Shown here: piece by piece, positions 1 to 32,465 of the stretch
Layout of the letters: the number at the start of each line of letters is the position of its first letter
How positions within the stretch are numbered: the stretch's first letter is position 1
NCBI GenBank assembly: GCA_964348415.1
Contig: CAYGCR010000004.1
Span: 21,651 to 85,650 of the forward strand
From: an uncultured Ignavibacteria bacterium
Lineage (GTDB): Bacteria; Zixibacteria; MSB-5A5; SM1-73
Direction of reading: 5' to 3'
DNA: 64,000 bases
Program-made: the position numbers and the translations under genes
Notes under the pieces: model-generated
Database searches by the model: none
The model's input: the letters and a program-made list of their open reading frames with translations, nothing else
Told to the model about the DNA's origin: nothing

Positions 1-304
<304 letters not shown>

Positions 305-3844: not shown

Positions 3845-3939
3845 AACTCCTCCTCGTCAAGGTTACAGAAGGTACCGAATTTGCGTGACATCCTATTCAT
3901 ACTTCTTATCCGGTTCTTTACGCAGACTAAGGGAATGTC

Positions 3940-4032
3940 GTGCGGTGCGTCTTTGTAGAGCCACTCGGCCAATCTCCTGAATCGGCCGGCCAGGGCCAAT
4001 GGCCCGAGCTCTCTTATCAGATCCACGTGCAA
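3940..4032 (-). pseudogene. Remnant 5' fragment of about 30 codons of a MarR-GNAT regulator gene. It is a duplicate of the N-terminus of the gene at 42508..43518.
   Basis: The translation MHVDLIRELGPLALAGRFRRLAEWLYKDAP matches HVDLIRELGPLALASRFRRLAEWLYKDGP of the 43518 gene. The reading frame then diverges and overlaps the serine-hydrolase gene. Confidence 0.5.
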
Positions 4033-4039
4033 GCCTCCA

Positions 4040-4115
4040 TTGTCTGAACATGAGTTGCCATTCTCCGAATTTATGTAAGTACTTACGCATCGTCAACCGA
4101 TTTGTTTCACAAATC
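4040..4115 (-). promoter_or_regulatory. Duplicated MarR-type promoter and operator region. It has a 12-bp palindrome gtaagtacttac (4075..4086) and a tttgtttcacaaa element.
   Basis: It is about 85% identical to 43520..43585, upstream of the intact MarR-GNAT gene. A perfect palindrome is present. Confidence 0.5.
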
Positions 4116-4406
4116 CGAGCTTCTGATCGCCGGCACAATTTGTGAACGGCGATGCCCGTCGAAATCACTCGCTGCTGATTATGCCCCTTGCTTTCTGTGA
4201 GATCTTGCCCACCCCTGCACGCGTAACCTGGCATGTATGACCAGGCAGCCCAGCTGTCAAGTGTAAGGTCGCACTTATGCCAGGCGGTCGGCAAGGCCTG
4301 ACGCAACCGCGAAGGCCTTGGAATGATGGACCTGGTCATCCTGACTAACTCTTGTGACTTAACCGACCCATCCGTTCTGCTTTTTGTTGACTTGCCCTCG
4401 GAGAGG

Positions 4407-5747
4407 TTACTCCGCTAATCCTGGAGCTTCCACCGGCGCACCGGGCGAAGGCGCAAAACAAGGCTCTTCTGTGTGGGGCAGACAATCTTCGGGTTTCATA
4501 TTCTTAAAACTGGTACGCAGCCCCCAGTTAGTACAAAAATAGAGCAGTGGATGAGCGTAGCTATGAAAGAATCTGGAAAATATCGAGGCTTTGGCGAAAA
4601 AATTTCTCCCCAACCACAGAAAACCTTCCGCCAGTTCTTCCGGGGTCATACTCTTGGGTCTGAAAACCACGGTTCTGTGGTTGTAGTCCTGCCAGTTCTG
4701 GCTTAGGAGCCTTCCTTCCTTCTTGAATCTGTCGAAAATGGTGGTGCCCGGGTAAGGGGTCAGAATATTAAAGGTTGCGCTGGTGATTCTGTTGTTCTCC
4801 AGAAAATTCAAGGTTTTTTCGAATATGCTCTTGTCGTCATGGTCGAAGCCGAACACCAGTGAGGCATGGAAGAGGATCCCGGAATCCCGAATGATCTTGA
4901 TAGCCTGGCTATATTCTTTGGCATCGTCTGGAGCTTTACGGAGCCTTTTTAGATTGTCAGAGGAAACCGACTCTATTCCGATGAACAAGCCGACACAACC
5001 AGATTCCTTCGCCAGCCTCAGTAAAGCCTGGTCCTTTGCCGAAGATATGGATGCCTGGCCGACCCACCAGCGAATTTTCGAATCCAAAAGAGCAGTAAAT
5101 AACTCCCTGGCAAATCTGGCATCCCCCATGATATTATCATCCAGAAAGAAGATCTTCTTACCTTTTCTTGCAGCTATTTCCCTCACGATGTCTCGAACTG
5201 CCCGGTGTCTTATCTTCTTACCATAAAGATGAGTAACCGAACAAAATTCGCAGTTATAGGGACAACCTCTGGTGCACAGGACGGGGCTCACGTGAAAGGG
5301 GGTATGATTGTGGTTAAGCTTGGCTACGGGGAATTTGGCCAGATCGGAATCAAAAGACCGGTAAAATCTTCGTAGCCTATTCTCTCTGAAATCTTCCAAA
5401 AGTTCACCCCAACATCCTTCTGCTTCGCCCATAACTACAGAGTCGCAGTGGGCGATGGCCTCGTCGGGCATGACCGTGGGATGAATCCCTCCCAAGACCA
5501 CCTTGGCACCCTTTTTTCGGAAAGCAGAGGAGAGCTGGTAAGCCCGAGGAGCGGCTGCGGTCATACAGGAGATTCCCACCAGATCGTAGTGTCTGTCAAA
5601 ATCGACCTCCTCGATCTCCTCCTCAACCACATCCACCTCAATCTCGGGCGGAGTCAAAGCAGAGATAACACCCAGGGTAAGCTGAGGCATTCTCAGAAAT
5701 CGGCTCCGCTCTTTGTCCAAAGAAGGAGCTATCAAAAGAATCTTCAT
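4407..5747 (-). CDS. B12-binding-domain radical SAM protein.
   Basis: It has an N-terminal B12-binding-like Rossmann region and a CTRGCPYNCEFC (CxxxCxxC) radical SAM motif. Confidence 0.8.
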   Translation of the reverse strand: MKILLIAPSLDKERSRFLRMPQLTLGVISALTPPEIEVDVVEEEIEEVDFDRHYDLVGISCMTAAAPRAYQLSSAFRKKGAKVVLGGIHPTVMPDEAIAHCDSVVMGEAEGCWGELLEDFRENRLRRFYRSFDSDLAKFPVAKLNHNHTPFHVSPVLCTRGCPYNCEFCSVTHLYGKKIRHRAVRDIVREIAARKGKKIFFLDDNIMGDARFARELFTALLDSKIRWWVGQASISSAKDQALLRLAKESGCVGLFIGIESVSSDNLKRLRKAPDDAKEYSQAIKIIRDSGILFHASLVFGFDHDDKSIFEKTLNFLENNRITSATFNILTPYPGTTIFDRFKKEGRLLSQNWQDYNHRTVVFRPKSMTPEELAEGFLWLGRNFFAKASIFSRFFHSYAHPLLYFCTNWGLRTSFKNMKPEDCLPHTEEPCFAPSPGAPVEAPGLAE

Positions 5748-5800
5748 TTTTTCTTTCGATGTGGGCCTAATCCGGCCACATGTTGGGAAGGTGAGTCCCT

Positions 5801-6007
5801 CTACTCGCTGACTCTCTTGACGCCGATAGCCTGAGGACCCTTCTTGCCCTTGACAATACTAAATTCCAGGTGGTCTCCCTCCTGTAATTCATCGAAGTCC
5901 ACGTCCTGTACTTCTGAGCGATGAAAAAATACCTCCCTTCCATCCTCCGCGGAGATGAATCCAAATCCGCGTTCTCTCATTATCCGCTTTACCGTTCCCT
6001 TGGACAT
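5801..6007 (-). CDS. Cold-shock protein (CspA family).
   Basis: The motifs GFGFI and VFFHRS are present in a protein of about 68 aa. A long AT-rich 5' leader (6008-6400) is typical for csp genes. Confidence 0.9.
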   Translation of the reverse strand: MSKGTVKRIMRERGFGFISAEDGREVFFHRSEVQDVDFDELQEGDHLEFSIVKGKKGPQAIGVKRVSE

Positions 6008-16411: not shown

Positions 16412-17164
16412 TCAAAACCTCCTGCCGATGCCAAAAACCAAATGCCTCGTCCTTATGTCCGTCTCCGCATGTCCGTTCTGAATCTTGGCATCCTTTACCT
16501 GGACATAGGTGTATTTGTATTCTATTGATAAAGCCAGACTGTGCGCTATTCCGACTTCAGTTGCGGCAGCTAACTGGTACGCGGGCCCGTGAATTTCATA
16601 CTGTTCTTTTTCCTCTCCCTCGATGGTACTTTCGGTATGCGGAATTAGGGGACCAATCCCCACTCGCCCGTAAAGCTCGACTTTGTTCCAAGAATCACCT
16701 TCGTCCCTGAGAAGTCCCAATCGACCCACCAGGTTGAAAAACAGAAAATTCAGGCCGTGACTCATGGAAAAACCCTGAACTATGTCTCCGAGCCTGATGG
16801 TTGAATCGACCAATTCTCCCCTTTTTGTTCCTGAAACATGAACTCCCTGTTCAGACTTGGAATACATCTTGGCGTGGATAAATTCGGCTTCCAAGCCAAA
16901 ACTAGGATAACGGTTAGGGAAGTAATTCACCCTTAAACCATAATACAAAGGAGTTTTCAATGATCTGTCATCATATTTAATATCGTGGAACACAAGATGA
17001 GTTTCCCTTGAAGGCTGTTCGATTCTTAAGTCGCTGTTAGAGCTGGAGGCTTTTCCCAGATAAGCTTCCAATCTCCATTCGGCGCTCGCAGGAACGGTTA
17101 GTATGACAAAGAGGTTCAGGGCTATCCAGATGATATTGGACAAGAATCGCATCCGAGACTCCAC
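16412..17164 (-). CDS. Outer-membrane beta-barrel protein (OmpW/PagL-like size class).
   Basis: It has a signal peptide and an amphipathic beta-strand pattern. The C-terminus is ..VFGIGRRF. Confidence 0.5.
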   Translation of the reverse strand: MESRMRFLSNIIWIALNLFVILTVPASAEWRLEAYLGKASSSNSDLRIEQPSRETHLVFHDIKYDDRSLKTPLYYGLRVNYFPNRYPSFGLEAEFIHAKMYSKSEQGVHVSGTKRGELVDSTIRLGDIVQGFSMSHGLNFLFFNLVGRLGLLRDEGDSWNKVELYGRVGIGPLIPHTESTIEGEEKEQYEIHGPAYQLAAATEVGIAHSLALSIEYKYTYVQVKDAKIQNGHAETDIRTRHLVFGIGRRF

Positions 17165-17432
17165 CCGTGATTATTCTAGTATTTTTTGTTTCCCAGTCAA
17201 GTAGTTTTGTTTCGATCTCAAAGGAACGCCTTCCAATCCACAGTATGTCCAGCTTCAACCTTGTTTTGCAAATAGACTGCCACAAAGCCTCTTACGTTGA
17301 CTTCTAGGCGATCCGGCGACCGTTAGCCTTTTGGGCGAAAAGCAATATCAAAGTTCTTGCACTTCGCTGCCCCAATCTCTATCTTGTGCTAAAAGGGCGT
17401 GGGTAAAACGTGGAAAGGAAAAGGGATTAATT

Positions 17433-18689
17433 ATGGCACATCTGGCAGGGAGAGACATTTATCGGAAGCTCGGCAAGAAGATTGACAATCTGACCATGAG
17501 GGCACCCTGGAATCAAACGTTTCATGCCATTTTGAAGGAGCTTTACTCTGAAGAGGAAGGAGAGGTTGTAGTCAAAATGCCTTTCGGCTTGTCTAATCTG
17601 GATCAAATTGAAAAGACCACCAGGTATGAGCGTGCTAAGTTGCAGAAAATCCTTGATAGTCTGTGTTCAAAGGGTCTGGTCATGGACCTCTGGTTACGCG
17701 GGGAGTATCACTATTCGCCTTCTCCCATGATCATCGGGATATTTGAGTTCACTATGATGCGGACACGGGGCGAGCTCAACATGAAAGAGTGGGCAAAGCT
17801 TTTCCACGAGTATTTCGACAGCGAAAACAACTTCTACTGGGCGAATTTCAGGCATGGTGAGAAAATCTCTCCTTTGCGGGCGCTGCCGCATGAGGGTACA
17901 GTGGATCCATCAGAATACGTTGAAGTCTTGGATTATGAGAAAGCGACGTCGATCGTGGAGGAAGCTGAGAAATTCTCCCTGGGCATATGCTCCTGCCGGC
18001 ACGAGAAGCTGCATGTTGGCGAGAAGAAGTGCGACGTGCCGCTTGAGACCTGTTCCTCCTTCGGAGCTGCCGCCGACTTCATGACCAGACACGGTTTTGC
18101 GAAAGAAGCTTCCAAATCCGAGATGCTGGAAAACCTTGAACGTTCGAAAGAGATGGGGCTGATATTTTGCGCAGACAACACGAAGCAGGGCGTCTCCTTC
18201 ATCTGTCACTGTTGTGGGTGCTGCTGCAACGCCCTTCTGGGTGTAAGCAAATTCGGATATCCCGGCATGGTGGTCACGTCCAACTTCATCGCACAAAGCG
18301 ACGAAGAGGTGTGCACTGAATGCGGGACGTGTGCCCAGTCCTGCCCCATCAATGCCATCGAGACGGCTCCCCAAGCCAGCCCCAGGATCGACGCGTCCAT
18401 GTGTTTGGGTTGCGCGGTGTGTGCGCTGAAGTGTCCGACCCAAGCCATGAAGCTGGTAAAGCGGAAGCAGCGAGTGCTCCATCCGGAGGACACCTTTGAA
18501 AGGGTTATTCTGCAATGCCTGGAGAGGGGAACCCTGCAGAATTTGATGTTCAACAACCCCCAGAGCCGGACCCACGCATTCGTGCGCGGGTTCGTGGGCG
18601 GATTTTTAAAACTGCCGCCGGTGAAGAAGGCCCTCATGAGCGATATGCTCCGTTCTTCATTTCTGGGGATGATGAAGAGGGGGGCCTGA
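17433..18689 (+). CDS. Fe-S protein with a 4Fe-4S dicluster ferredoxin domain plus a Cys-rich CHCCGCCC segment.
   Basis: Motifs CTECGTCAQSCP and CLGCAVCALKCP are present. The start at MAHLAGRD is preceded by a purine-rich RBS. The ORF is open from 17331. Confidence 0.5.
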   Translation: MAHLAGRDIYRKLGKKIDNLTMRAPWNQTFHAILKELYSEEEGEVVVKMPFGLSNLDQIEKTTRYERAKLQKILDSLCSKGLVMDLWLRGEYHYSPSPMIIGIFEFTMMRTRGELNMKEWAKLFHEYFDSENNFYWANFRHGEKISPLRALPHEGTVDPSEYVEVLDYEKATSIVEEAEKFSLGICSCRHEKLHVGEKKCDVPLETCSSFGAAADFMTRHGFAKEASKSEMLENLERSKEMGLIFCADNTKQGVSFICHCCGCCCNALLGVSKFGYPGMVVTSNFIAQSDEEVCTECGTCAQSCPINAIETAPQASPRIDASMCLGCAVCALKCPTQAMKLVKRKQRVLHPEDTFERVILQCLERGTLQNLMFNNPQSRTHAFVRGFVGGFLKLPPVKKALMSDMLRSSFLGMMKRGA

Positions 18690-18886
18690 AAACAGATGAG
18701 GGGATCGATTTCATAAAAATCAAATGGTGTTGTGAGGCTGGTTTAGCACTCGGAAGGTGAGCTCAGATGGCTTATCATTACACGTGGAAACCTAAGAGCG
18801 GTTTAGTTTTCTTATCACCTTTGGTGGTCGACAATCGTATAATGATTGGGAGCTTGTGAAATAATTCACTAACGGAATGGTGATCT

Positions 18887-20452
18887 GTGTTGAGGAAAAG
18901 CATTGGAGCTAAACTGATTCTGGTGGTGGGGTTCATCCTGATGTTGTCCATCGGGATCTATGCATACGTCAACATAGCATCTCAAAAAAGACAGCTGACC
19001 GGTGAGGTGATGCGGGGGGCTCTGAGAATCAGCGAGACGGTTAGAAGAAGCACCAGGTTGGACATGCTGAAGAACCTGAGGGAAGACCTGCACCAGATGA
19101 TCGAAACCATCGGACAGCAGGAAGGTCTGGAGAAGATCAGGGTCTTCAACAAGGACGGTCAGATAATGTTCTCCTCTGACAAAACCGACATTGGAGAGAT
19201 GGTGGACAAAAGGGCTGAAGCCTGCTACGCCTGCCACTCAGCCGAAAAGCCGTTGGAGAGACTGAACATCCCGGACCGCTCCAGAATCTTCACCTCCAAG
19301 GACGGCCACCGAGTGTTGGGGGTAATCTCCGCAATCTACAATGAACCAGACTGCTACACGCCCGAATGCCACGCCCATCCCCCGGGACAGAAGGTTCTGG
19401 GGGTATTGGATATTGGAATGTCGCTGGCGGACGTGGATAAAGACGTAAAAGGTGCCCAGAACAAGATGATCGTTTTCGCCGTAATTGCCTTTCTGATCAT
19501 TTCGGTGACCATAAGCATCTCCATCAATCGGTATGTCACTCGTCCGGTCAGGGAGTTAGTCAAAGCGACCAGAAAGATCGCCGAAGGGGACTTAGACTAT
19601 TCCATACCTGTCAAAACTGAAGGAGAGATCGCCCAGTTGGCTTCTTCCTTTAGCCAAATGACCTTGGATTTGAAAAAGGCGGACGAAAAGCTGGTCGAGT
19701 GGGGAAAAACGCTGGAACAGAAGGTGCGGGAGAGGACCGAGGAGTTGAGAAAGACCGAGAATCAGCTGATTCAGTCGGACAAGGTGGCTTCTCTGGGTAA
19801 GTTGGCTGCCGGGGTTGCCCACGAGATCAATAGTCCCCTGACCGGGATTCTTACCTATTCGTCGCTTTTGTTCAAAGCCAAGTCAGATGGAGACCCGGAC
19901 AAAGAGGATTTAGAGGTTATCGTAAATGAAACCAATCGGTGCAAGAAGATTGTCAAAGGCCTTCTGGACTATGCGCGGCAAACCGAACCCCAGAAGACCC
20001 TGTCGGACATCAATGAGGTGATCGGCAAATCCATAGACTTGATTTCGCATCAGGCCAGTCTGCAAAATGTGAAAATCGAGAAGAAAATGAAAGCGGACTT
20101 GCCCAAGATAATGGTGGATGTGAGCCAGATTCAACAGGTCTTCATCAATATCTTACTTAATGCCATTGAGGCCATGCCAGAGGGGGGAGCTTTGACTGTA
20201 TCCTCTGAGGCCGAAGGTAGAATGGTAGCTGTTCGGTTTGCGGATACCGGCATCGGAATTCCGGAGGAGCTCCTGCCGAAAATCCTGGATCCTTTCTTTA
20301 CAACCAAGACGCAGGGCAGGGGGACTGGTCTGGGGCTGTCTGTAAGCTACGGCATAGTCGAGAGGCACAGAGGCAAACTGGAAGTGAAAAGCCAGGTCGG
20401 AAAAGGCACCACCCTTACGGTAAAGCTGCCCATAAAGGAAGGGCTTTCCTGA
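18887..20452 (+). CDS. Sensor histidine kinase with a periplasmic domain carrying a c-type haem-binding motif, plus HAMP, HisKA and HATPase domains.
   Basis: It has a GTG start and two transmembrane segments. The periplasmic region contains CYACH (CXXCH) and [12 protein letters not shown] domain and an H-box ([14 protein letters not shown]) follow. N/G boxes are present. Confidence 0.8.
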
Positions 20453-20474
20453 ATTGCAGAAGGGGTAAAAGCAA

Positions 20475-21872
20475 ATGATCAAAGCCAGGATACTGGTAGT
20501 GGACGATGAGGAGATCGTACTGAAAAGCTGCCGCAGGATACTGGAGGAAGGCAAGCATGAGGTCTTTGCGGCACTATCCGGTGAGGAAGCTTTTGAGCTT
20601 CTGGCGAAAGAGCCTATCGACATCGTCATCACTGATGTCAAGATGCCGGGAATGGACGGCATGGAGGTTCTGGAAAGAATCAAGAAGGAATACCCGGACA
20701 TCTTGGTGATCATGATCACCGGCTACTCCACGGTCCAATCTGCGGTTCAGGCCATGAAACTGGGAGCTTTTGACTACATTCCCAAGCCTTTCAGCCCGGA
20801 CGAGGTTCTGATCGTGGTCGAGAAGGCTATGGAAAAAAAAAGCCTGATCTGTGAGACCATCTACCTGCGGAAGGAGCTACAAGCCAAGTACGGCTTTGAG
20901 AATATCATCGGCAACAGCCCCAAGATGCAGGAGGTGTATAAGCTGATTCGTAAAGTCGCTCCGACGGAGAGCACCGTTCTGATTCGGGGAGAAAGCGGGA
21001 CGGGCAAAGAACTCATCGCCCGGGCAATCCACTTCAATAGCCCCAGAAAGCAAAAGCCCTTCGTTCCGGTCGACTGCGGGGTTTTTGCCCAGGAACTTTT
21101 GGAATCTGAACTTTTCGGCCATGTAAGAGGATCGTTCACGGGGGCAATAGTGACCAAGCCCGGGCTGTTTGAGATAGCCGATGGAGGATCGATCTTCTTA
21201 GACGAGATCGGGGATACAAATGCCAATTTCCAGTCCAAGCTACTGAGAGTGATTCAGGAAAGAGAGTTTACTCCGGTGGGGGGAGTGAGGCCCAAGAGAG
21301 TGGATCTAAGATTTATCGTGGCCACAAACAAAGACCTGGAGAAGCTAGTGCAGGAGGAAAAATTCCGGGAGGACCTTTTTTACCGATTGAACGTGGTCAG
21401 CATCAGCGTGCCAACCTTGAGAGAAAAGAAAGACGACATTCCCCTTTTGGCTTATCACTTCCTGAGAAAATACGCTGAGGAGATGAAAAAGAACATCAAA
21501 AGCATTTCAGTCGACGCGATGAATATGTTAATTGTCTATAGCTGGCCCGGAAATGTCAGACAACTGGAGAACGTGATTGAACGGGCTGTTGTCATGGCCG
21601 AAGGGAATACCATCACCACCGAACACCTCCCCTTTGTTGTGGGAGCTGAGGCAGCGCATCCCGACACCCCTATTCCCAAGACTTCAGAGGAGTTGAAGGA
21701 CACTAAGAAAAAGCTGAGGGAATTTGCCGTTGAGAGCGTTGAGAAATCGTTCCTTCTCGATGCGTTGACCAGAAACGACTGGAATGTGACCAAATCCGCC
21801 AAGGACGTGGGAATGCAGAGGTCGAATTTCCAGGCTCTTATGCGGAAATACAATATAAAGCTACAGAAGTAA
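20475..21872 (+). CDS. Sigma-54-dependent response regulator (NtrC/AtoC family).
   Basis: It has a receiver domain, an AAA+ sigma-54 interaction domain (GESGTGKE, GAFTGA) and a C-terminal Fis-type HTH. Confidence 0.9.
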   Translation: MIKARILVVDDEEIVLKSCRRILEEGKHEVFAALSGEEAFELLAKEPIDIVITDVKMPGMDGMEVLERIKKEYPDILVIMITGYSTVQSAVQAMKLGAFDYIPKPFSPDEVLIVVEKAMEKKSLICETIYLRKELQAKYGFENIIGNSPKMQEVYKLIRKVAPTESTVLIRGESGTGKELIARAIHFNSPRKQKPFVPVDCGVFAQELLESELFGHVRGSFTGAIVTKPGLFEIADGGSIFLDEIGDTNANFQSKLLRVIQEREFTPVGGVRPKRVDLRFIVATNKDLEKLVQEEKFREDLFYRLNVVSISVPTLREKKDDIPLLAYHFLRKYAEEMKKNIKSISVDAMNMLIVYSWPGNVRQLENVIERAVVMAEGNTITTEHLPFVVGAEAAHPDTPIPKTSEELKDTKKKLREFAVESVEKSFLLDALTRNDWNVTKSAKDVGMQRSNFQALMRKYNIKLQK

Positions 21873-21897
21873 GTGGAGATCGTATATAAAAAAGATT

Positions 21898-21920
21898 CGG
21901 TGTATATTTCGTGTATACAC
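21898..21920. promoter_or_regulatory. Candidate enhancer or UAS: ggtgtatatttc-gtgtatacac with a 10-bp perfect palindrome gtgtatacac.
   Basis: The palindrome lies about 190 bp upstream of the sigma-54 promoter at 22107. Confidence 0.3.
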
Positions 21921-22106
21921 AAACTAAAATTGCTAAGTCCTTATTTATGAATGACTAAGTCTCATCACCCCGCATAATTCTTTCATTCACCAAGTTGCTC
22001 AACTTGCCAAGACCTACCGATTCTGGATTTCCCTGCAGTCGTTAAGCTTTTCTATTTCAATTCCTTAGCTGGCTCGCTGATGAAATTTGTGAAAAAGTTC
22101 ACAATG

Positions 22107-22122
22107 TGGCACGCTTGTTGCA
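22107..22122 (+). promoter_or_regulatory. Sigma-54 (-24/-12) promoter TGGCACG-N4-TTGCA.
   Basis: The sequence is an exact match to the RpoN consensus. It lies about 40 nt upstream of the RBS and ATG at 22163 and immediately downstream of the sigma-54 activator gene. Confidence 0.7.
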
Positions 22123-22162
22123 CTGACGGGCGGTGTTTGGAAAAGAAAGGAAGGTGAGAAAG

Positions 22163-23179
22163 ATGGGGTACAGAGCAAATGTGCTGGTGGTGGACGATGA
22201 GCAGATAGTGTGCGATAGCTGTAGAAAGGCGTTAAGTCAGCACGGGCACAATGTTCAGACTGCTCTAAACGGCAGGGAAGCTCTGAGAAAGGTGGAACAG
22301 GACAAATATGACGTGCTTATTGCCGATTGGAAGATGCCGGAGATCGACGGCATGGAGGTCTTGAGAATCGTAAAGAAGAATCACCCCGACATAGTGGTAA
22401 TAATGATAACGGGGTATCCATCAGTCGAGTCTGCAGTAAAAGCGATGAGATTAGGTGTCTCCAACTATGTTCCAAAACCTCTTGACCCGGATGAGCTAAG
22501 TCGAACCCTGCAAAAGGCCCTGGAGGAAAGGAAAACCGGGGAAAATGACCTGTTCTATTATCAGAAATACATCTGGGCGCGCATGTTGGAGGATGGAACG
22601 GTCGAAGTCGGAGTGAACAACCTGTTTCGCGAATCCGTGGGGGACATAATGTACGTTGACTTGCCTTGTCACGAGACCAGGGCGGAACACGGAAGGCTCT
22701 TTGTCAGGATTTTGGCTGCGGACAAGCAGATGCACAAGCTCTGTGTTCCTATTCGGGGACGAGTGGTGGGGATCAACCACGAGATCAACTTCAATACCGA
22801 TTTGATAAACAAAGATCCATTCGGGAAAGGCTGGATCGTCCGACTGGAACCTTTCAATTTGGAGGGGGACCTGAAGAACTGGTCAGGCAACATCTCGATT
22901 TTCTCCGACGGTAGACAAGCGGAATTGAATTCTCAGAGCAGAGTTATCACCTCGGATTCCACGCCGACCACCGCAACCGGAACTGAAAGAGAGGAAAAAA
23001 TCAAAGAGCACTTAACCCAAAAGCCGGGAAGAAGACTGTCTGGCTTTAGGTTTCCCCTTGGGAAGTTCTTCCTATCTGCGCTTGAATCTCGGCTTTTCTT
23101 CTTGGCTTTGTTGCCCATATGCTTGGGCGCGATATCCAGAGCAGTACTTTGCCAGGTTAGCCCCCAGGGGGCTGACTGA
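22163..23179 (+). CDS. Response-regulator receiver domain fused to a GcvH-like (lipoyl-carrier fold) domain with a C-terminal hydrophobic tail.
   Basis: The receiver has the phospho-accepting Asp region (DWKMPEIDG). The downstream region aligns with glycine-cleavage H protein (..DGTVEVGV..GDIMYVDLP..LAADKQM..PIRGRVVGIN..DPFGKGWIVRLEP), and the Lys is at the lipoyl position. A strong RBS precedes the start. Confidence 0.65.
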   Translation: MGYRANVLVVDDEQIVCDSCRKALSQHGHNVQTALNGREALRKVEQDKYDVLIADWKMPEIDGMEVLRIVKKNHPDIVVIMITGYPSVESAVKAMRLGVSNYVPKPLDPDELSRTLQKALEERKTGENDLFYYQKYIWARMLEDGTVEVGVNNLFRESVGDIMYVDLPCHETRAEHGRLFVRILAADKQMHKLCVPIRGRVVGINHEINFNTDLINKDPFGKGWIVRLEPFNLEGDLKNWSGNISIFSDGRQAELNSQSRVITSDSTPTTATGTEREEKIKEHLTQKPGRRLSGFRFPLGKFFLSALESRLFFLALLPICLGAISRAVLCQVSPQGAD

Positions 23180-23184
23180 AAGGG

Positions 23185-23853
23185 GTGATTGACATGAAAC
23201 GCCGAGCCAATGTGCTGGTGGTGGACGACGAGAAGACCGTATGCAACAGTTGCAGAAAGATTCTGACCCGGGAGGGATACAATGTGGATGTGGCCCTATC
23301 GGGAGAGGAGGCGCTAAACAAGGTCAGAGGTAACGGGTTCGACGTGGTGATCACCGACTGGAGAATGCCCGAGATCGATGGCTTTGAAGTAACCCGAAGG
23401 ATAAAGAAAGAGAAGCCCCAGGTTGTGGTAGTACTGATCACTGGCTATCCTTCAGTTGAAAACTCGGTCAAGGCCATAAGATCGGGGGTGTCCGACTACC
23501 TGACCAAGCCCTTCACGCCGGAGGAACTTTCTGACGCCGTGCTGAGAGCCCTGGCGAAGGGTCAAGCTGTCCCGGCAGATTTAGCCCTGGATCGATTGGT
23601 TGAGGAAGGGATCGTGGCCCCGAGGCCGAAACCCAAGGAGGCGGAAGCCGTCGTGGACAAAGCCGCCATTGCTCCGGCAGCGACTCCGGTCCCTGCCGAA
23701 GAGGAAAAGGCTGGCCCGGCAAGATTCGTGTTGAAGTCTGTGTTGGCGCCCGTTTTTGGCAGGTTGTTCTTCATCGCCCTGGGTCCCATAGTCATTTTTT
23801 CCATCGTCAGCGGCGTTTTCAAAGCAGTTCTTGGAAAGAAGCCTGTGAGTTAG
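23185..23853 (+). CDS. Single-domain response-regulator receiver protein with a C-terminal transmembrane segment. It is a paralogue of 22163 and 23981.
   Basis: The receiver consensus has a VCNSCRK motif. An Ala/Pro-rich linker follows, then a hydrophobic tail LFFIALGPIVIFSIVSGVF. Confidence 0.7.
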   Translation: MIDMKRRANVLVVDDEKTVCNSCRKILTREGYNVDVALSGEEALNKVRGNGFDVVITDWRMPEIDGFEVTRRIKKEKPQVVVVLITGYPSVENSVKAIRSGVSDYLTKPFTPEELSDAVLRALAKGQAVPADLALDRLVEEGIVAPRPKPKEAEAVVDKAAIAPAATPVPAEEEKAGPARFVLKSVLAPVFGRLFFIALGPIVIFSIVSGVFKAVLGKKPVS

Positions 23854-23980
23854 CAGCCCCCTTGCGATTTTCGGAACGGGTTTAGGTAGAGATCTTTGTA
23901 ATGGAGATGAAGCTAAAGCAGGTTGAACAGAAGACAGCAGCCATGAAAAGAACGACAACAGATAACGAAAGGAGTAACAA

Positions 23981-24511
23981 ATGGTAGCTTTGTTGGTGGT
24001 ATTGACCTTCATAGTGGCGCTGGCAATTGACGCTCTGGTCAGACGAGGCAGAAAGGTGGAACACACGGCAGAATTCTCGGCAGTTACAAGACCAGCTGTT
24101 GCAACGGCTGCCGCTAAACCCGTACCCAACGTCTTGGTGGTGGACGACGAGAACACCGTATGTAACAGCTGCAAGAAGATACTGACCCAGGGAGGTTACA
24201 ACGTGGATGTGGCCTTGTCGGGACAGGAAGCATTGAACAAAATGAAGGGAAGAGGATTTGACGTGCTGATAACCGACTGGAAGATGCCGGAGATCGATGG
24301 GCTGGAGGTAACCAAAAGGATAAAGAAGGAAAATCCCAATGTAGCGGTGATAATGATAACTGGTTATCCTTCAGTCGAGTCCTCCGTCAATGCCATAAGG
24401 TCCGGGGTATCCGACTATGTGCCGAAGCCCTTTACCCCGGACGAGCTCAATGACGCTGTGATCAGGGTGTTAGAGAAGGCTGGTCGCATTCCTGCGGCCG
24501 CGCGAGCCTAA
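23981..24511 (+). CDS. Receiver-domain protein with an N-terminal transmembrane anchor (third tandem paralogue).
   Basis: The N-terminus is MVALLVVLTFIVALAI. The receiver is highly similar to the two upstream paralogues (VCNSCKK..DWKMPEIDG..ITGYPSVESSV). Confidence 0.7.
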   Translation: MVALLVVLTFIVALAIDALVRRGRKVEHTAEFSAVTRPAVATAAAKPVPNVLVVDDENTVCNSCKKILTQGGYNVDVALSGQEALNKMKGRGFDVLITDWKMPEIDGLEVTKRIKKENPNVAVIMITGYPSVESSVNAIRSGVSDYVPKPFTPDELNDAVIRVLEKAGRIPAAARA

Positions 24512-24654
24512 CCTTGGTCGGGAACCTGCCGGAAACCGTCTGTGAGCGGAACCTCTCACTGTTTCGGGCCGGCGGCCAGGGAGAGGCTCGGACCTAAATC
24601 CCTGATGGAATCGATTGCAATAAGAGAGCAAGAACAGAATCAAGGAGCAATTCA

Positions 24655-25419
24655 ATGACAAAACCAAAAGCGCTCTTAATTGATATCACCAAATGCATCG
24701 GCTGTCAGGCCTGCGCATTGGCCTGTAAGGAAGCCAACGGTCTTCCCGGGGAGGAGGAAGAAGAGCTCTCCGCCACAGCCTATACCGTGGTGAAGGAGAA
24801 AGACGACGTGTATTATCGTCGCCTGTGCATGCACTGCAATGACCCCACCTGCGCCTCGGTTTGTCCGGTGGGAGCGTTCGAGAAGACTCCGGAAGGCGCC
24901 GTTATCTATCAGGCATACAAGTGCATAGGGTGCCGTTACTGCATGCAGGCCTGTCCCTTCGGCGTGCCCACCTATGAATGGAAAAAGCTTGCGCCCAAGG
25001 TGAGGAAGTGCATTATGTGTTACCACAGACTGAAGGAAGGCAAGATAACCGCTTGCGCCGAGGCGTGTCCTACCGAAGCCACCATTTTCGGAAAGCGGGA
25101 CGAGCTTATCCAGGTGGCGAGAGGACGCATAAAAGAAAATCCTGATCTGTACGTGGATCACATATACGGCGAGAAGGAAGCTGGAGGGACCTCGGTTCTG
25201 ATTTTATCAAGCCTGCCATTTGAGGCGCTTGGATTCCCCACCAACCTTGGTGAACGCCCTCTGCCCGAACTGACCTGGGCGGCCCTGAAGAAAGTTCCCA
25301 GCATCATCGTTTTTGGCGGCGCAGTCCTTTACGGGATATGGTGGATTATCGACCGTAGAATGGAGTTGGCCGAATACAGAAGAAAAGAGGCGGACTCTGA
25401 GTTAAAAGACAAGATATAA
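24655..25419 (+). CDS. 4Fe-4S ferredoxin-type subunit (HybA/NrfC/PsrB-like) with a C-terminal transmembrane anchor.
   Basis: It has four Cys clusters (CIGCQAC..C, CMHCNDPTCASVCP, CIGCRYCMQACP, C..C). The C-terminus has the hydrophobic helix VPSIIVFGGAVLYGIWWII. Confidence 0.7.
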   Translation: MTKPKALLIDITKCIGCQACALACKEANGLPGEEEEELSATAYTVVKEKDDVYYRRLCMHCNDPTCASVCPVGAFEKTPEGAVIYQAYKCIGCRYCMQACPFGVPTYEWKKLAPKVRKCIMCYHRLKEGKITACAEACPTEATIFGKRDELIQVARGRIKENPDLYVDHIYGEKEAGGTSVLILSSLPFEALGFPTNLGERPLPELTWAALKKVPSIIVFGGAVLYGIWWIIDRRMELAEYRRKEADSELKDKI

Positions 25420-25469
25420 AAATGCAGTCACACGCCGACTACGAGGTTGATGACTGAAGGGAGATTACG

Positions 25470-26657
25470 ATGAGTATCAAACTACCGTTCAAGGTGACTT
25501 TCTGGAAAGTGGTTTTGCTGTTGATTTGGCTGGCTGGCCTGGTGGCGACAATCGTGCGCTTTGGTGGCGGATTAGGAGCCGCAACCAATCTGAGCGACAA
25601 GTTTCCATGGGGGCTGTGGATTGGTTTCGACGTCATATCCGGAGTGGGACTATCTGCTGGCGCATTCACCATAGCCGCGGCAGTCTACGTGTTTCACGTA
25701 AAGCGCTTCTATCCCATCCTGAAGCCCACTATCCTAACTGCCTTCTTAGGCTATCTTCTGGTCATCGTGGGGCTTTTGTTTGACGTGGGACGTCCGGACA
25801 AAATCTACAATCCACTTTTCATGGGCAACTTCCACTCGGCGCTATTTGAAGTAGCCATGTGCGTCATTTTTTACACCACGGTTTTGTTTTTCGAATTCAG
25901 CCCCAATCTTTTCGAGCGTTTAGGCTTGAGGGGACCCAAAAGATGGATAAGCAGAGTGACCATCCCCTTGGTGATACTGGGGGTCATCCTTTCCACCATG
26001 CACCAATCCTCTTTGGGCTCGCTGTTTTTGATCGTCCCCGCCAAGCTGTACGTCTTCTGGTATTCAGCCTCCCTGCCGCTTTTGTTTTACGTCTCTGCTA
26101 TTGCCGTGGGATGCGCTATGGTGATCTTCGAATCCCACCTGAGCTTCAGGGCTTTTGGTCACCGTCTGAAAGAGGACGTGCTGGCGGACATAGGAAGAAT
26201 TCTTCTGGTCGTTCTGGTGATCTATCTGCTGATGAAAGCTTATGATTTTTACATGCGGGGAGTGTGGTCGGAATTCTTCCTGCCTCGCATGGAGACCTGG
26301 CTTTTCTGGCTGGAAATCCTGTCCGGGATGGTCGCTCCCATCGTTTTGCTCTCTATACGAAAGATAAGGCTCTCCACCGGGGGATTGTACTATGCCGCGG
26401 TATGCACCATCGTGGGGTTCCTGCTAAACCGATTAAATGTTTCCACCACCGGTTTCGTGGCTTCGTCCGGCGTGAACTACTTCCCGTCCTGGATGGAAAT
26501 CGCCATTACGCTGGCTTTGGTATCCACCGGCTTTTTTATCTTTGCCATGGCGGTTCGTTATTTGCCTATCTTTGAGCATCCGGAAGCGGGTGCGGAGCCA
26601 GAAGCAGTTGGAGTCCGCGAGCGGGTCTTTGATGTTGCAGCATTGCGTAAATCGTGA
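25470..26657 (+). CDS. NrfD/PsrC/HybB-like polytopic membrane subunit (quinone-interacting).
   Basis: It has about 8-10 transmembrane helices and is adjacent to the FeS subunit, as in NrfCD/HybAB modules. Confidence 0.65.
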   Translation: MSIKLPFKVTFWKVVLLLIWLAGLVATIVRFGGGLGAATNLSDKFPWGLWIGFDVISGVGLSAGAFTIAAAVYVFHVKRFYPILKPTILTAFLGYLLVIVGLLFDVGRPDKIYNPLFMGNFHSALFEVAMCVIFYTTVLFFEFSPNLFERLGLRGPKRWISRVTIPLVILGVILSTMHQSSLGSLFLIVPAKLYVFWYSASLPLLFYVSAIAVGCAMVIFESHLSFRAFGHRLKEDVLADIGRILLVVLVIYLLMKAYDFYMRGVWSEFFLPRMETWLFWLEILSGMVAPIVLLSIRKIRLSTGGLYYAAVCTIVGFLLNRLNVSTTGFVASSGVNYFPSWMEIAITLALVSTGFFIFAMAVRYLPIFEHPEAGAEPEAVGVRERVFDVAALRKS

Positions 26658-27007: not shown

Positions 27008-27676
27008 ATGAAAATTGGAAGCTTCTCTGAACAAGACGTGCTGAAGTTGGCTAAGAAGGCATACACTGAAGGAGACGCAGGATTTGAAATCAAACCGAAC
27101 AAATGTGCCCTCTTAGTTATTGACATGCAAGATGAGTTCGTCAAACCTCATTGGTCTCCTGGTTGGGTGCCGGAAGCGACAAAGCGAGTTCCCCGAATTA
27201 AGACGCTAATTGAACACTGCAGGAGTAAGAATATCCCGGTAATCTACACAGTCTACTCAAACACACATAATTACCTGGACCGTCCGAAAACCCTAAAATT
27301 CATGCCACTGCTATATTCTGAACTGGATATTGATTTCTCGATATTCTTTGTAAACGGGCAAGTTTGGCACGAACTTGCTCCTCGGGAGGATGAGATAGTA
27401 ATCAAGAAGTCGTCTTACGGAGCATTTTATGACACACCTTTGGAGACAATTCTAAAGAATAGGGAAAAAGACACGGTGATAATATGTGGAACGATTACCA
27501 ACTGTTGCTGCGGCACAACAGCACGACAGGCATATGAAAGGAGCTTCAAAGTAATCTTCGGAAGCGATGTAACGGCGCCTGATGATCCGGAAACGCAGGA
27601 ACCGGAATTGAAAGTCTTAAGGAAAGGTTTTGCCAGGGTCCTGACGGCAGAAGAAATAATCAAGGCGCTAAGTTGA
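27008..27676 (+). CDS. Isochorismatase-family cysteine hydrolase (copy 1).
   Basis: The motifs LLVIDMQDEF and ICGTITNCCCGTTAR (catalytic Cys region) are present. A near-identical paralogue lies at 31792..32460. Confidence 0.8.
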   Translation: MKIGSFSEQDVLKLAKKAYTEGDAGFEIKPNKCALLVIDMQDEFVKPHWSPGWVPEATKRVPRIKTLIEHCRSKNIPVIYTVYSNTHNYLDRPKTLKFMPLLYSELDIDFSIFFVNGQVWHELAPREDEIVIKKSSYGAFYDTPLETILKNREKDTVIICGTITNCCCGTTARQAYERSFKVIFGSDVTAPDDPETQEPELKVLRKGFARVLTAEEIIKALS

Positions 27677-31659: not shown

Positions 31660-32465
31660 CTAATTGCCCACCCACGTGATTTTCTGCCCAGCATCGTATC
31701 TGAGACGAAAACGGGGAACCGCTACCGTCTGGAGACCGTATAGACGTAAGGTAAACGGTACAACAAAATAGATCAGGAAAGGCGGTATGCAATGAGAGTG
31801 GGAAGTTTCTCCGAACAAGATGTGCTCAGCTTGGCTAAGAGAGCGTACAATGAAGGAGACGCAGGGTTTGAGATCAAATCGGATAAATGCGCCTTGTTAG
31901 TCATTGACATGCAGGATGAATTTGTGAAACCTCATTGGTCTCCTGACTGGGTGCCCGAAGCCACAAAACGAGTACCCCGGATTAAGATGCTGATTGAACA
32001 CTGCAGGAGTAAGAATATCCCGGTAATCTACACGGTATACTCAAACACACATAATTTCCTGGACCGTCCGAAGACCGGGAAATTCATGCCAGGACGATAT
32101 TCGGAGCTGGACATTGACTTCTCCATATTCTTTGTGAATGGACGAGTCTGGCACGAACTTGCTCCTCGAGAGGATGAGATAGTGATCAAGAAGTCGTCCT
32201 ACGGAGCGTTCTATGATACACCCTTAGAGACAATTCTGAAGAACATGGGAAAGGACACGGTGATTATATGTGGGACGATAACCAACTGTTGTTGTGGTAC
32301 AACAGCACGACAGGCGTATGAAAGGAGCTTTAAAGTAGTCTTCGGAAGCGATGTAACGGCGCCTGATGATCCGGAAACGCAAGAGTCAGAGCTGAAGGTC
32401 CTAAGGAAAGGTTTTGCGAGGGTCTTGAGCGCGGAAGAAATAATCAGGGCTTTAAGCTAAATTGT
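31660..32465. repeat. Segmental duplication of about 0.8 kb. It comprises isochorismatase gene copy 2 plus about 130 bp of upstream leader, and is a duplicate of 26880-27690.
   Basis: DNA identity is about 85-90% in the leader (..ctggagaccgtatagac..taaggtaaa.ggtacaaca..gatcaggaaagg..) and in the CDS. Confidence 0.7.
31792..32460 (+). CDS. Isochorismatase-family cysteine hydrolase (copy 2).
   Basis: It is about 90% identical at the amino-acid level to 27008..27676. Confidence 0.8.
   Translation: MRVGSFSEQDVLSLAKRAYNEGDAGFEIKSDKCALLVIDMQDEFVKPHWSPDWVPEATKRVPRIKMLIEHCRSKNIPVIYTVYSNTHNFLDRPKTGKFMPGRYSELDIDFSIFFVNGRVWHELAPREDEIVIKKSSYGAFYDTPLETILKNMGKDTVIICGTITNCCCGTTARQAYERSFKVVFGSDVTAPDDPETQESELKVLRKGFARVLSAEEIIRALS

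Follow-up and report, generated by a model that had tools for sequence, protein, structure and literature searches.

Three anchored receiver proteins, one fused to a GcvH-like domain, in a sigma-54-dependent operon with an FeS/NrfD pair in Zixibacteria

Genes and promoter of the locus

The window analysed here, a 64-kb stretch of Zixibacteria DNA, contains a unit at positions 18887-26657 that consists of a histidine kinase, an NtrC-type activator, a sigma-54 promoter, three receiver proteins, an FeS protein and an NrfD subunit (Table 1). The sigma-54 promoter TGGCACgcttgTTGCA, already proposed in the first-pass annotation, proved to be the sole exact consensus match within the 64 kb, where 0.04 such matches were expected by chance. 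It lies directly 3' of the activator gene and 40 nt 5' of the ATG of protein 1, and its -24 element is 3 nt from the end of the perfect palindrome TTGTGAAAAAGTTCACAA. A near-palindrome that is identical in kind, TTGTGAAATAATTCACTA, is found 16 nt 5' of the kinase start codon. The promoter arrangement recurs in other loci (designated by L numbers): GG-N10-GC equivalents precede the module's first gene in L001, L002, L003, L005 and L088, and a CRP/FNR-type palindrome beside the sigma-54 promoter is kept in L001, L003, L005 and L089. An Rfam scan of the 64-kb window found no RNA family.

Table 1. Features of the receiver locus (positions refer to the window)
Feature	Coordinates	Strand	Description
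Near-palindrome TTGTGAAATAATTCACTA	18854..18871	none	TGTGA-N6-TCACA type; 1 mismatch to TTGTGA-N6-TCACAA
Membrane histidine kinase	18887..20452	+	Pfam HAMP, HisKA, HATPase_c; 2 TM segments
NtrC-type sigma-54 activator	20475..21872	+	REC, AAA+ Sigma54_activat, HTH_8; Pfam Sigma54_activat E 1.8e-68
Perfect palindrome TTGTGAAAAAGTTCACAA	22087..22104	none	CRP/FNR-type consensus; 0 mismatches
Sigma-54 promoter TGGCACgcttgTTGCA	22107..22122	+	Exact match to consensus
Protein 1 (RG)	22163..23179	+	338 aa from an ATG with a good RBS; receiver, GcvH-like barrel, linker, C-terminal anchor
Protein 2	23185..23853	+	222 aa; receiver, Ala/Pro/Glu-rich linker, C-terminal anchor helix
Protein 3	23981..24511	+	176 aa; N-terminal anchor helix, RRGRK, receiver
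HmcB/HybA-like FeS protein, four [4Fe-4S] clusters	24655..25419	+	Pfam Fer4_11; NCBIfam HmcB
HmcC/HybB-like NrfD-family membrane subunit	25470..26657	+	Pfam NrfD; ~10 TM helices

With a kinase, a REC-AAA+(Sigma54_activat)-HTH_8 activator and a GG-N10-GC promoter, the unit includes an NtrC-type sigma-54 two-component system, and it resembles other such systems in its kinase, its activator architecture and its consensus -24/-12 promoter. However, its operon adds three receivers that resemble the activator's own receiver, and the kinase sensor bears putative haem-c attachment sites, namely a CxxCH and a CX4CH motif in the periplasmic loop of kinase 18887. C113, C116 and H117 were invariant in an alignment of four kinase orthologues, and putative haem-c motifs are also present in the kinases of loci L088 and L089.

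The first-pass annotation had linked the receivers to redox biology. In agreement with this, the operon continues into a HmcB/HybA-like four-[4Fe-4S] protein and an NrfD-type quinone subunit. The FeS gene has an RBS (aaggag) 8 nt before its ATG, and its product carries the first Cys cluster at residue 14, with a position of about 14 in the homologues inspected, and a C-terminal tail-anchor helix at residues 214-232. The best NCBIfam matches of the pair were HmcB/HmcC, followed by HybA/HybB, all below equivalog level (FeS protein: HmcB 275 bits with a cut-off of 420, HybA 206 with a cut-off of 263; NrfD subunit: HmcC 321 bits with a cut-off of 550, HybB 268 with a cut-off of 450). Like HybA/HybB, HmcB/HmcC and Geobacter Cbc4 (CbcT/CbcU), the pair combines a tail-anchored four-[4Fe-4S] protein with a ~10-TM, cofactor-less subunit of the NrfD family. 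In contrast to these complexes, it scores sub-equivalog, is devoid of a Tat signal peptide (the HmcB/HybA alignment of the FeS protein starts at profile position 37-40) and has GcvH-like and receiver companions, which are unmentioned in the literature found on those complexes. Furthermore, the operon in the window holds no catalytic or cytochrome partner for the pair, and no Tat-signal partner was found near the operon in the ten loci examined.

Lys and Arg are enriched after the tail-anchor helix in 55/55 homologues of the FeS protein, and a hand count on the TM segments of the NrfD subunit gave a K/R bias of ~21 versus 9, which points to cytoplasmic N and C termini. The K/R bias of the two proteins therefore predicts a periplasmic FeS domain. 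An inverted, SoeC-like orientation of NrfD, with the FeS subunit in the cytoplasm, was also considered but was not adopted as the default, since both proteins show a canonical K/R bias. Because the receiver and GcvH-like domains must be cytoplasmic and the FeS domain is predicted to be periplasmic, contact could then involve no more than the TM helices and the side of NrfD that faces the cytoplasm.

Receiver domains, anchors and the GcvH-like barrel

All three receiver proteins matched Pfam Response_reg with E values from 3e-29 to 2.5e-32 (PF00072 scores of 101.8, 111.8 and 109.2 bits, curated cut-off 30.2), and their receiver domains share pairwise identities of 60%, 61% and 76% over 119 residues. 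Identity to the receiver of the adjacent activator is lower, at 48-52%. The phospho-pocket of protein 1 is formed by D11/D12, D55, T83 and K105, and the aligned positions are kept in proteins 2 and 3; in an alignment of 86 family sequences, D12, D55, T83 and K105 were 87-98% conserved. In an AlphaFold2 model of protein 1 built from a 70-sequence alignment, residues 1-125, which include Cys17, Cys20 and Asp55, adopt a (beta-alpha)5 receiver fold with a pLDDT of ~90, and Foldseek matched this domain to 3crn and the NtrC1 receiver with TM scores of 0.82-0.92. The longest ORF for protein 1 begins further upstream, at GTG 22133. A Pfam search of the three proteins found no DNA-binding domain. The first-pass description of three consecutive paralogous receivers, each tethered by a single helix and none with a DNA-binding output, is thus borne out by these matches and by the hydropathy profiles.

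In protein 1, a disordered linker (residues 242-300) leads to a modelled helix at 301-329, and hydropathy places the anchor at 311-329 (nt 23093-23149), with VSPQGAD as the tail behind it. The anchor helix of protein 2 (residues 194-212, nt 23764-23820) is homologous to that of protein 1, while the hydrophobic anchor of protein 3 comprises residues 2-20 (nt 23984-24040) by hydropathy. The N-terminal helix of protein 3 is identical at 18/25 positions (72%) to the N-terminal helix of a TM-GcvH-like protein in locus L003. The C-terminal anchor of protein 1 is missing in ~14/86 orthologues, with hydropathy near or below zero, and falls just below threshold in six more. Two of the three receivers are missing in some species, so that copy number ranges from 1 to 3 between species. 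Thus, the C-terminal anchor and two of the receivers are dispensable.

The barrel of protein 1 spans about residues 128-240, and residues 131-235 matched Pfam GCV_H with 69.1 bits (cut-off 22.2, E 4e-19). The domain also matched the solved H-protein 1onl in sequence (E 1.9e-16), and Foldseek aligned it to 1onl and 3a7a with TM scores of 0.75-0.77 and matched 3ab9 as well; the rmsd to H-protein structures was ~2 A over 110 residues. The GcvH-like domain reported at first pass, including a lysine (Lys188, nt 22724-22726) that aligns with the lipoyl-lysine, was therefore recovered at the level of Pfam profile and fold.

Gene neighbourhoods of related proteins

A locus scan seeded with five GcvH-like domains returned 80 loci, most of which were ordinary short gcvH genes. 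The Zixibacteria loci long enough to judge all contain REC-GcvH, optionally REC-TM and/or TM-REC, and then the HmcB-like and NrfD genes, with a minimal form of REC-GcvH, FeS and NrfD in L011. In locus L003, REC-TM and TM-GcvH are encoded by two separate genes 5' of an FeS/NrfD pair of the same type. In loci L087-L089, from other phyla, a TM-GcvH gene lies 1-23 nt 5' of the FeS gene; the kinase and activator in these loci are of the type found in the window, and L087 and L088 additionally have a gene for a tetrahaem cytochrome c just 5', a placement that resembles CbcSTU. Genes foreign to this pattern intervene between activator and receiver operon in two loci (type I restriction-modification genes in L009, two radical-SAM/SPASM genes in L011); they are not conserved and were judged unrelated.

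Homologues of protein 2 adjoin an HmcB'C' pair in L003 and an HdrCB-HdrA-Mvh cluster in L005; the REC-TM beside HdrCB-HdrA-Mvh belongs to a Terriglobales MAG. A delta-proteobacterial (Desulfobacterota) MAG encodes a REC-GcvH-HdrC fusion beside HdrB and an HdrA/NfnB-like protein, and P0252 carries a triple GcvH-like repeat followed by C-terminal Cys-rich motifs, with a FAD-oxidase and HdrD-like region recognised by eye only. Members of the GcvH-like branch neighbour HmcBC-like and Hdr-like redox proteins in Zixibacteria and Desulfobacterota as well as in one MAG each of Bacteroidota and Acidobacteriota (Terriglobales), and they occur in a DsrC/HdrD-like/APS-reductase neighbourhood on a Pirellulaceae (Planctomycetota) contig. 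Furthermore, a REC-GcvH subfamily of ~257 aa is encoded next to a PAS histidine-kinase gene in 3/3 contexts examined, either overlapping it by 4 nt (L091) or following 2-25 nt behind (L093, L092). These contexts speak for REC-GcvH being a genuine response-regulator class.

The first-pass annotation had called the fusion of a receiver to a GcvH-like domain an undescribed architecture. This held for the literature, in which differently worded searches for a receiver combined with GcvH turned up no relevant paper, but not for sequence databases, where the REC-GcvH architecture is abundant and auto-annotated as 'CheY-like/glycine cleavage system H'. The arrangement of receiver, GcvH-like domain and quinone module is uncharacterised yet widespread, not rare.

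Candidate roles of the receivers and the GcvH-like domain

Two proposals made at first pass concern the chemistry of individual side chains, and neither gained support. One was a lipoylated swinging arm or acyl-state signalling, in which Lys188 of the Lys-bearing Zixibacteria would be lipoylated or acylated and would act as a dithiol/disulfide or acyl carrier gated by receiver phosphorylation. The position of Lys188 fits this proposal, since in the AlphaFold2 model it lies at the tip of the hairpin that joins strands 179-185 and 190-194, where its register matches that of the lipoyl-lysine, and it is preceded by Asp, as is the lipoyl-lysine in the TDKA motif of E2 lipoyl domains. There is also a precedent in sulfur oxidisers, where Hdr-like complexes operate together with GcvH-like proteins that bind lipoate (LbpA/sHdr), and relatives of the present domain likewise adjoin Hdr-like proteins. 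The expected conservation of the lysine held among close homologues to the extent that 85/92 keep it; however, 7/92 have Arg or Glu, 13/92 have a one-residue insertion directly after the Lys, and in 2/8 species-level Zixibacteria loci (L011 and L001/L013) the position reads Asp-Arg with the rest of the operon intact. Across the wider family, Lys was present in merely 4/38 cluster representatives of REC-GcvH-like proteins and 2/11 TM-GcvH-like representatives, compared to 57/83 short canonical-type H proteins, and Leu or Glu occupies the position in the REC-GcvH paralogues linked to Hdr. Thus, although the domain shares its fold and Pfam GCV_H match with the glycine cleavage H protein, it differs from the H protein and LbpA in having a receiver or a membrane helix as fusion partner and in not conserving the lipoyl-lysine, the family signature being instead a His at +3 (His191) and a Trp at +6. 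The domain also missed the NCBIfam GcvH threshold (NF002270, 71.6 bits versus a cut-off of 117), and a scan of all but 5 of the non-overlapping window ORFs of at least 150 aa found neither a lipoate ligase nor a lipoyl synthase nor gcvT/gcvP. Given the lack of family-wide conservation of the lysine and of a lipoate-handling gene among these ORFs, we consider a lipoyl carrier very unlikely; the GcvH-like domain of protein 1 is probably not lipoylated. The other proposal was a redox or metal switch at the Cys pair of the motif V-C-x-S-C-(R/K)-K, which is indeed present in all three receivers directly after the DDE pocket, although this counts as one observation and not three because the genes are paralogues. 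A Cys17-x-x-Cys20 disulfide or metal/Fe-S centre, maybe formed between receivers, would make phosphotransfer redox-dependent. V-C-x-S-C is present in 85/88 Zixibacteria orthologues of protein 1 and in the accessory receivers of loci L001, L008, L012 and L014, its first Cys sets the accessory receivers of Zixibacteria apart from the activator (V-L-K-S-C in the window), and Cys352 in the second DHp helix of the kinase is invariant. Against a switch, both Cys lie in the model within helix alpha-1 and not at its N-cap, and in close relatives that share the gene context Leu or Val can take their place: REC-TM homologues read V-L-D-S-C in 29/29 cases, delta-proteobacterial paralogues read V-C-x-S-V, and P0317, P0302 and P0397 have zero Cys at the motif positions. 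Alpha-1 is the main kinase-contact helix, as in the HK853-RR468 complex, and the exchange for Leu or Val therefore fits packing or kinase-docking positions. A Cys switch is accordingly highly improbable in our view. As Lys188 and the Cys pair are conserved within most Zixibacteria, there may still be lineage-specific chemistry at either site.

From the genes and promoter present, the domain folds, the patterns of conservation and the recurrence of the neighbourhood, we infer a different role, to which we give about an even chance: the three receivers would serve a sigma-54-dependent membrane redox module as accessory subunits or regulators under phosphorylation control, and would not be lipoyl carriers. 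Kinase 18887, with its periplasmic domain and two putative haem-c motifs, would phosphorylate activator 20475, which would then fire the promoter at 22107 and so drive transcription of the three receivers, the FeS protein and the NrfD quinone subunit. Because the receivers keep every phospho-acceptor residue and have an alpha-1 like that of the activator, they would probably be phosphorylated by the same kinase. Two conserved anchor helices would hold them at the membrane, where they would associate physically with the FeS/NrfD pair. One of these helices appears to be that of the TM-GcvH-like protein encoded directly 5' of the FeS gene in other phyla; in Zixibacteria this subunit has apparently been rebuilt as TM-REC plus REC-GcvH-like, which would bring the GcvH-like domain under phosphorylation control. 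The barrel itself would be a lysine-independent output domain that docks onto FeS or CCG-type redox proteins, and phosphorylation would exert its regulatory effect by altering how the barrel engages the module, e.g. in assembly, in electron flow or at the cytoplasmic face of NrfD.

The same genes could be read as a phosphate sink with feedback, in which the receivers compete with the activator for phosphoryl groups from the kinase and so exert negative feedback, the anchors just keep them near the kinase, and there is no functional contact with the redox module. Single-domain receivers are established phosphate sinks in chemotaxis and other branched pathways, and several features of the locus agree with such a function: the promoter ahead of the receivers is under the control of the locus's own activator, their alpha-1 resembles that of the activator, and a copy number that varies between species is what would be expected of a tuning device. 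However, a sink leaves unexplained the conserved GcvH-like domain, the REC-GcvH-HdrC fusion and the re-use of the TM-GcvH anchor, a helix that goes with the FeS/NrfD pair in phyla without extra receivers. We therefore regard it as unlikely, although it can coexist with a role of the receivers as accessory subunits. A more far-reaching version of the accessory role, which we find comparably improbable, is a new type of respiratory complex. The receiver and GcvH-like proteins would then be true subunits of a signal-less HmcBC-like quinone module, and the kinase would control respiration post-translationally too, by switching a lysine-less 'plug' on or off the cytoplasmic face of NrfD or the FeS partner. 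In a still more radical variant, the family-conserved His191 may contribute to phosphoryl or ligand chemistry; the analogy here is to PTS EIIA-Glc, which carries a phospho-His on a fold related to the hybrid-barrel domain.

Among the closest known counterparts is Rrf1 (DVU_0530), a CheY-like receiver encoded 3' of hmcABCDEF in Desulfovibrio vulgaris Hildenborough that, as quoted from Keon et al. (1997), influences the hmc operon. Common to both systems, as far as the quoted description extends, is a receiver without a DNA-binding domain genetically linked to an operon for an HmcB-type, tail-anchored FeS protein and an HmcC-type NrfD subunit. By contrast, the quoted description of Rrf1 mentions no GcvH-like domain or anchor, a comparison made by description and not by sequence, and the operon in the window lacks counterparts of the 16-haem cytochrome, the cytochrome b and the HdrD-like subunit that are described for the hmc operon.

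These findings bear on annotation, in that REC-GcvH-like genes should neither be named 'glycine cleavage system H' nor be presumed to encode lipoylated proteins. They also raise a question for Tat biology, as HmcB-like proteins of this kind, which form a very abundant family, look periplasmic and carry no export signal. If the proposed accessory role is true, a two-component system would act directly on a quinone-linked respiratory module via dedicated receiver subunits, beyond its sigma-54 control, and a first function, that of a docking or output domain, would be assigned to a large, unstudied branch of the GcvH fold without the lipoyl-lysine.

Tandem receivers and their operon

The analysis bore out what the first-pass annotation had observed at 22163-24511, namely three tandem receivers with membrane anchors, a GCV_H domain and a sigma-54 promoter. 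Each of proteins 1-3 carries a Response_reg domain (Pfam, E 3e-29 to 2.5e-32), and their receivers share 60%, 61% and 76% pairwise identity with one another and 48-52% with that of the sigma-54 activator encoded next door. Hydropathy analysis placed one strongly hydrophobic segment in each protein. Protein 1 is 100% identical to the NCBI entry 'response regulator, partial [candidate division Zixibacteria bacterium]', and a profile search matched its residues 131-235 to Pfam GCV_H with 69.1 bits, above the cut-off of 22.2. Protein 1 was also modelled with AlphaFold2 from 70 homologues (mean pLDDT 72.5). Foldseek matches of the model in the PDB were NtrC1-type receivers and the H proteins 1onl, 3a7a and 3ab9 (TM about 0.76), and no solved structure with both domain types was found there.

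Features of the locus (nucleotide positions in the window; residue numbers within the named protein)
Feature	Position	Strand	Description
Membrane histidine kinase	18887-20452		HAMP, HisKA, HATPase_c
NtrC-type activator	20475-21872		upstream of receivers
Protein 1	22163-23179	+	338 aa
Protein 1, receiver	residues 1-125		AlphaFold2
Protein 1, GcvH-type barrel	residues about 128-240		AlphaFold2
Protein 1, disordered linker	residues 242-300		AlphaFold2
Protein 1, helix	residues 301-329		AlphaFold2
Protein 1, hydrophobic segment	residues 311-329		C-terminal
Protein 2	23185-23853	+	222 aa
Protein 2, hydrophobic segment	residues 194-212		C-terminal
Protein 3	23981-24511	+	176 aa
Protein 3, hydrophobic segment	residues 2-20		N-terminal, then RRGRK
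FeS protein	24655-25419	+	254 aa, four [4Fe-4S] clusters; downstream
NrfD-family membrane protein	25470-26657	+	395 aa; downstream

The only exact sigma-54 consensus within the window, TGGCACgcttgTTGCA, lies at 22107-22122 (0.04 expected by chance), and no convincing terminator was found within 22163-26657. The unit is larger than the three receiver genes and includes the kinase, the activator, the FeS protein and the NrfD subunit. In NCBIfam the FeS/NrfD pair best matched HmcB/HmcC and next HybA/HybB, all under equivalog cut-offs. The pair is similar to HmcBC, HybAB and Geobacter CbcTU; however, it lacks a signal peptide and is accompanied by no cytochrome in the window. Genes farther away (transport, isochorismatase, beta-lactamase-like and others) are unrelated. 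Among them, two isochorismatase-family genes (27008-27676 and 31792-32460), 4 kb apart and encoding 91% identical proteins, look like a recent local duplication, and a cluster at 43728-47482 (MttB-family methyltransferase, B12-activation domain protein, corrinoid (B12-binding) protein, homocysteine S-methyltransferase-like protein) looks like a corrinoid-dependent methyl-transfer system.

A perfect CRP/FNR-type palindrome, TTGTGA-N6-TCACAA (22087-22104), lies right beside the sigma-54 promoter at its -24 element, and a second copy with one mismatch (18854-18871) is found 16 nt ahead of the kinase start. Such a palindrome also flanks the sigma-54 promoter in homologous loci, on the upstream side in L001 and on the downstream side in L003, L005 and L089. 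Within the window, no gene of the CRP/FNR family was noted. A sigma-54-like element with one mismatch, TGGCAGtctatTTGCA (17267-17282, minus strand; 2.15 such matches expected per window by chance), is intergenic, upstream of an outer-membrane beta-barrel gene (16412-17164, minus strand). The gene directly upstream of the kinase (17331-18689, plus strand) encodes a Cys-rich protein of 452 aa. This protein combines a 2x[4Fe-4S] ferredoxin domain with a CCGCCC motif, and it is absent from the corresponding position in L001.

The periplasmic loop of the kinase (residues ~30-190) contains an invariant CxxCH motif (CYACH, C113-H117) and a second motif, CYTPECH (CX4CH), which reads CFLCH in the delta-proteobacterial orthologue, CSNADCH in L088 and CSGENCH in L089. 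These motifs suggest that the sensor binds c-type haem, one or two per protein, a feature shared by the Zixibacteria, delta-proteobacterial and L088/L089 loci. The second DHp helix carries an Arg-Cys (RCKKIV; residues 351-352, window 19937-19942) that is invariant in Zixibacteria and delta-proteobacterial orthologues; the position is Cys in L089 and Ser in L088.

The GcvH-like domain and the alpha-1 cysteines

Lys188 of protein 1 aligns with the lipoyl-lysine and sits at a hairpin tip in the AlphaFold2 model, and the first-pass annotation had proposed a possibly lipoylated swinging arm. Conservation of this lysine among orthologues held in large part, with Lys in 85 of 92 aligned homologues, and failed in the other seven (Arg 3, Glu 4); 13 of the 92 have a one-residue insertion straight after this column. 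Two of eight Zixibacteria species loci (L011; L001/L013 = CP070839) have Asp-Arg at the site in an otherwise intact operon, and delta-proteobacterial paralogues have Leu or Glu. We scanned 1.84 billion cluster representatives in full with the domain (HMMER) and classified the top 150, which include 38 REC-GcvH proteins (receiver plus GcvH-like domain), 11 TM-GcvH proteins (N-terminal helix plus GcvH-like domain) and 83 short H proteins. Lys occupied the lipoyl column in 57 of these 83 short H proteins, compared to 4 of the 38 REC-GcvH and 2 of the 11 TM-GcvH representatives. His191, in the pattern H-x-[LV]-W-[SA]-P, is by comparison kept in 88% of the REC-GcvH family (86-sequence alignment). 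Furthermore, the domain of protein 1 falls under the NCBIfam GcvH threshold, and the search for lipoate-handling or gcv genes, which covered all but five of the non-overlapping window ORFs of at least 150 aa, returned none. The domain shares its fold with H protein and LbpA, but their defining lysine is not kept in the GcvH-like family. The lipoyl and swinging-arm reading is thus not upheld: this evidence speaks against lipoyl carriage for the family at large, and protein 1 is probably not a lipoyl carrier, although Lys188, so common among its close homologues, may bear a lineage-specific modification in protein 1.

Positive support was likewise lacking for the proposal that the receiver cysteines may form a redox or metal switch, an unlikely though possible role in Zixibacteria. 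In the model, helix alpha-1 spans residues 14-25 and contains both Cys17 and Cys20. V-C-x-S-C is found in 85 of 88 Zixibacteria protein 1 orthologues, whereas the motif reads V-L-K-S-C in the activator of the same locus, [VI]-L-D-S-C in all 29 outside homologues of the REC-TM type (that of protein 2) and V-C-x-S-V in delta-proteobacterial receivers; Cys is absent at these sites in three inspected representatives of other REC-GcvH lineages. Replacement by Leu or Val is the pattern expected of packing or docking positions. In solved complexes of kinases with their regulators, contact with the kinase is made mainly by helix alpha-1. The likeness of this helix between accessory receivers and activator fits one shared kinase.

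Gene contexts across lineages

Among species-representative genomes, the fusions closest to that of the window came from eight Zixibacteria and one delta-proteobacterial MAG. All sufficiently long Zixibacteria contigs have the order REC-GcvH, optional REC-TM and/or TM-REC (the protein 3 type), FeS protein and NrfD, usually with kinase and activator upstream. Loci with three receivers are confined to the window and L008-L010; two are present in L012 and L014, and REC-GcvH alone in L011. Upstream of the first gene there is a sigma-54 element in L001, L002, L003, L005 and L088. The last nine residues of protein 1, after the anchor helix (window 23150-23176), are conserved as (V/F)SP(Q/E/K)GA(D/N), also in L007-L014; this tail is predicted to be extracytoplasmic, which hints at a specific periplasmic contact.

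The FeS protein family (about 255 aa, no signal peptide) is very large, with 7476 matches at E <= 1e-20. In L087-L089, one of them from a Bacteroidota MAG, a 225-234-aa TM-GcvH protein (N-terminal membrane helix and GCV_H) is followed after 1-23 nt by the FeS gene and then NrfD, within which the L087 sequence stops. L088 has a like kinase and activator beside the cluster, and L089 a kinase and the start of a further gene. In L003, REC-TM, TM-GcvH, FeS and NrfD are all separate genes, and its TM-GcvH N-terminal helix (MVAILVALTFITAIVIDGLVRRGRE) is identical to that of protein 3 (MVALLVVLTFIVALAIDALVRRGRK) at 18 of 25 positions. On the simplest reading, the GcvH-like domain would be the ancestral partner of the FeS/NrfD pair, and the TM-GcvH subunit would have been rebuilt in Zixibacteria as TM-REC and REC-GcvH. 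Upstream of the L089 cluster (1426-5958), two multihaem cytochromes c of 413 and 562 aa are followed by a 433-aa protein whose sequence looks like that of a putative outer-membrane beta-barrel; the resemblance of this arrangement to a porin-cytochrome conduit hints at a possible role of the module, in some lineages, in electron transfer outside the cell or in the periplasm.

Hdr-type contexts were also found. In the delta-proteobacterial L002, kinase, activator and sigma-54 promoter precede REC-GcvH, REC-STAS, REC-GcvH, a REC-GcvH-HdrC fusion, HdrB and a 1218-aa HdrA/NfnB-like protein. In L005 (Terriglobales MAG), a REC-TM protein, its receiver about 64% identical to that of protein 1, is followed by HdrC, HdrB, an HdrA-like protein, MvhD and NiFe hydrogenase. 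The representative P0252 has three GcvH-like repeats, after which comes a long C-terminal region containing ferredoxin-like and Cys-rich motifs, read by eye as a putative FAD-oxidase and HdrD-like region. A REC-GcvH subfamily of about 257 aa gave 847 matches at E <= 1e-10, the named ones being Planctomycetota, Zixibacteria and GN15. In each of the three contexts examined, its gene comes directly after one for a PAS-PAS-HisKA-HATPase kinase (4-nt overlap in L091; gaps of 2 nt in L093 and 25 nt in L092), and the L091 surroundings are those of sulfur metabolism (DsrC-like protein, HdrD-like protein, APS reductase). The redox link suggested by the first-pass annotation is supported by gene context. 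Family-wide conservation of D12, D55, T83 and K105 argues that REC-GcvH proteins are real phospho-receivers, and on these matches they are a widespread response-regulator class. The architecture had been called undescribed: no published account of receiver-GcvH proteins was found in the literature, but they are abundant in databases rather than a one-off, and IMG auto-annotates them as 'CheY-like chemotaxis protein/glycine cleavage system H lipoate-binding protein'.

Sidedness and proposed control

The FeS protein has no Tat signal: it aligns to the HmcB and HybA profiles from their position 37-40 onward, its RBS lies 8 nt ahead of the ATG, and the first Cys cluster of the homologues examined is at about residue 14. 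K/R excess after the tail-anchor helix in 55 of 55 homologues (from 120, P0131-P0250), together with the NrfD bias (about 21 K/R on the termini side vs about 9 on the opposite side), predicts a periplasmic FeS domain. No Tat-signal partner gene was found near the operon in ten loci checked. There is a precedent in a signal-less tail-anchored FeS protein proposed to be carried along by a FeFe hydrogenase that is itself Tat-targeted (bioRxiv 10.1101/2023.11.02.564894). For SoeABC, a cytoplasmic orientation has been proposed in which the NrfD-like subunit is inverted (PMC8076601). Which of these arrangements applies decides whether the GcvH-like domain can directly touch the FeS protein.

By sequence comparison, the receiver active sites are intact, the anchor helices conserved and the operon conserved under a sigma-54 promoter beside kinase and activator, and the GcvH-like domain, independently of its lysine, recurs beside FeS and Hdr-type proteins or as a fusion with them. 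We propose that kinase 18887 would phosphorylate the activator, to drive transcription, and the accessory receivers as well, which would be seated on the FeS/NrfD module via their anchor helices. Receiver phosphorylation would then alter the way in which the GcvH-like barrel interacts with the module, with effects on assembly, on electron flow or on the NrfD cytoplasmic face, the site of proposed proton half-channels. We give this general picture an even chance, and any particular gating step a far smaller one. That the receivers are a pure phosphate sink is unlikely, though compatible with the redox-module picture. Among receiver proteins linked with an Hmc-type operon, the nearest precedent is Rrf1 of Desulfovibrio vulgaris; the descriptions consulted mention neither a GcvH-like domain nor an anchor for it. 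The locus represents two-component control attached to a quinone module, in a real and conserved variant that is so far uncharacterised.
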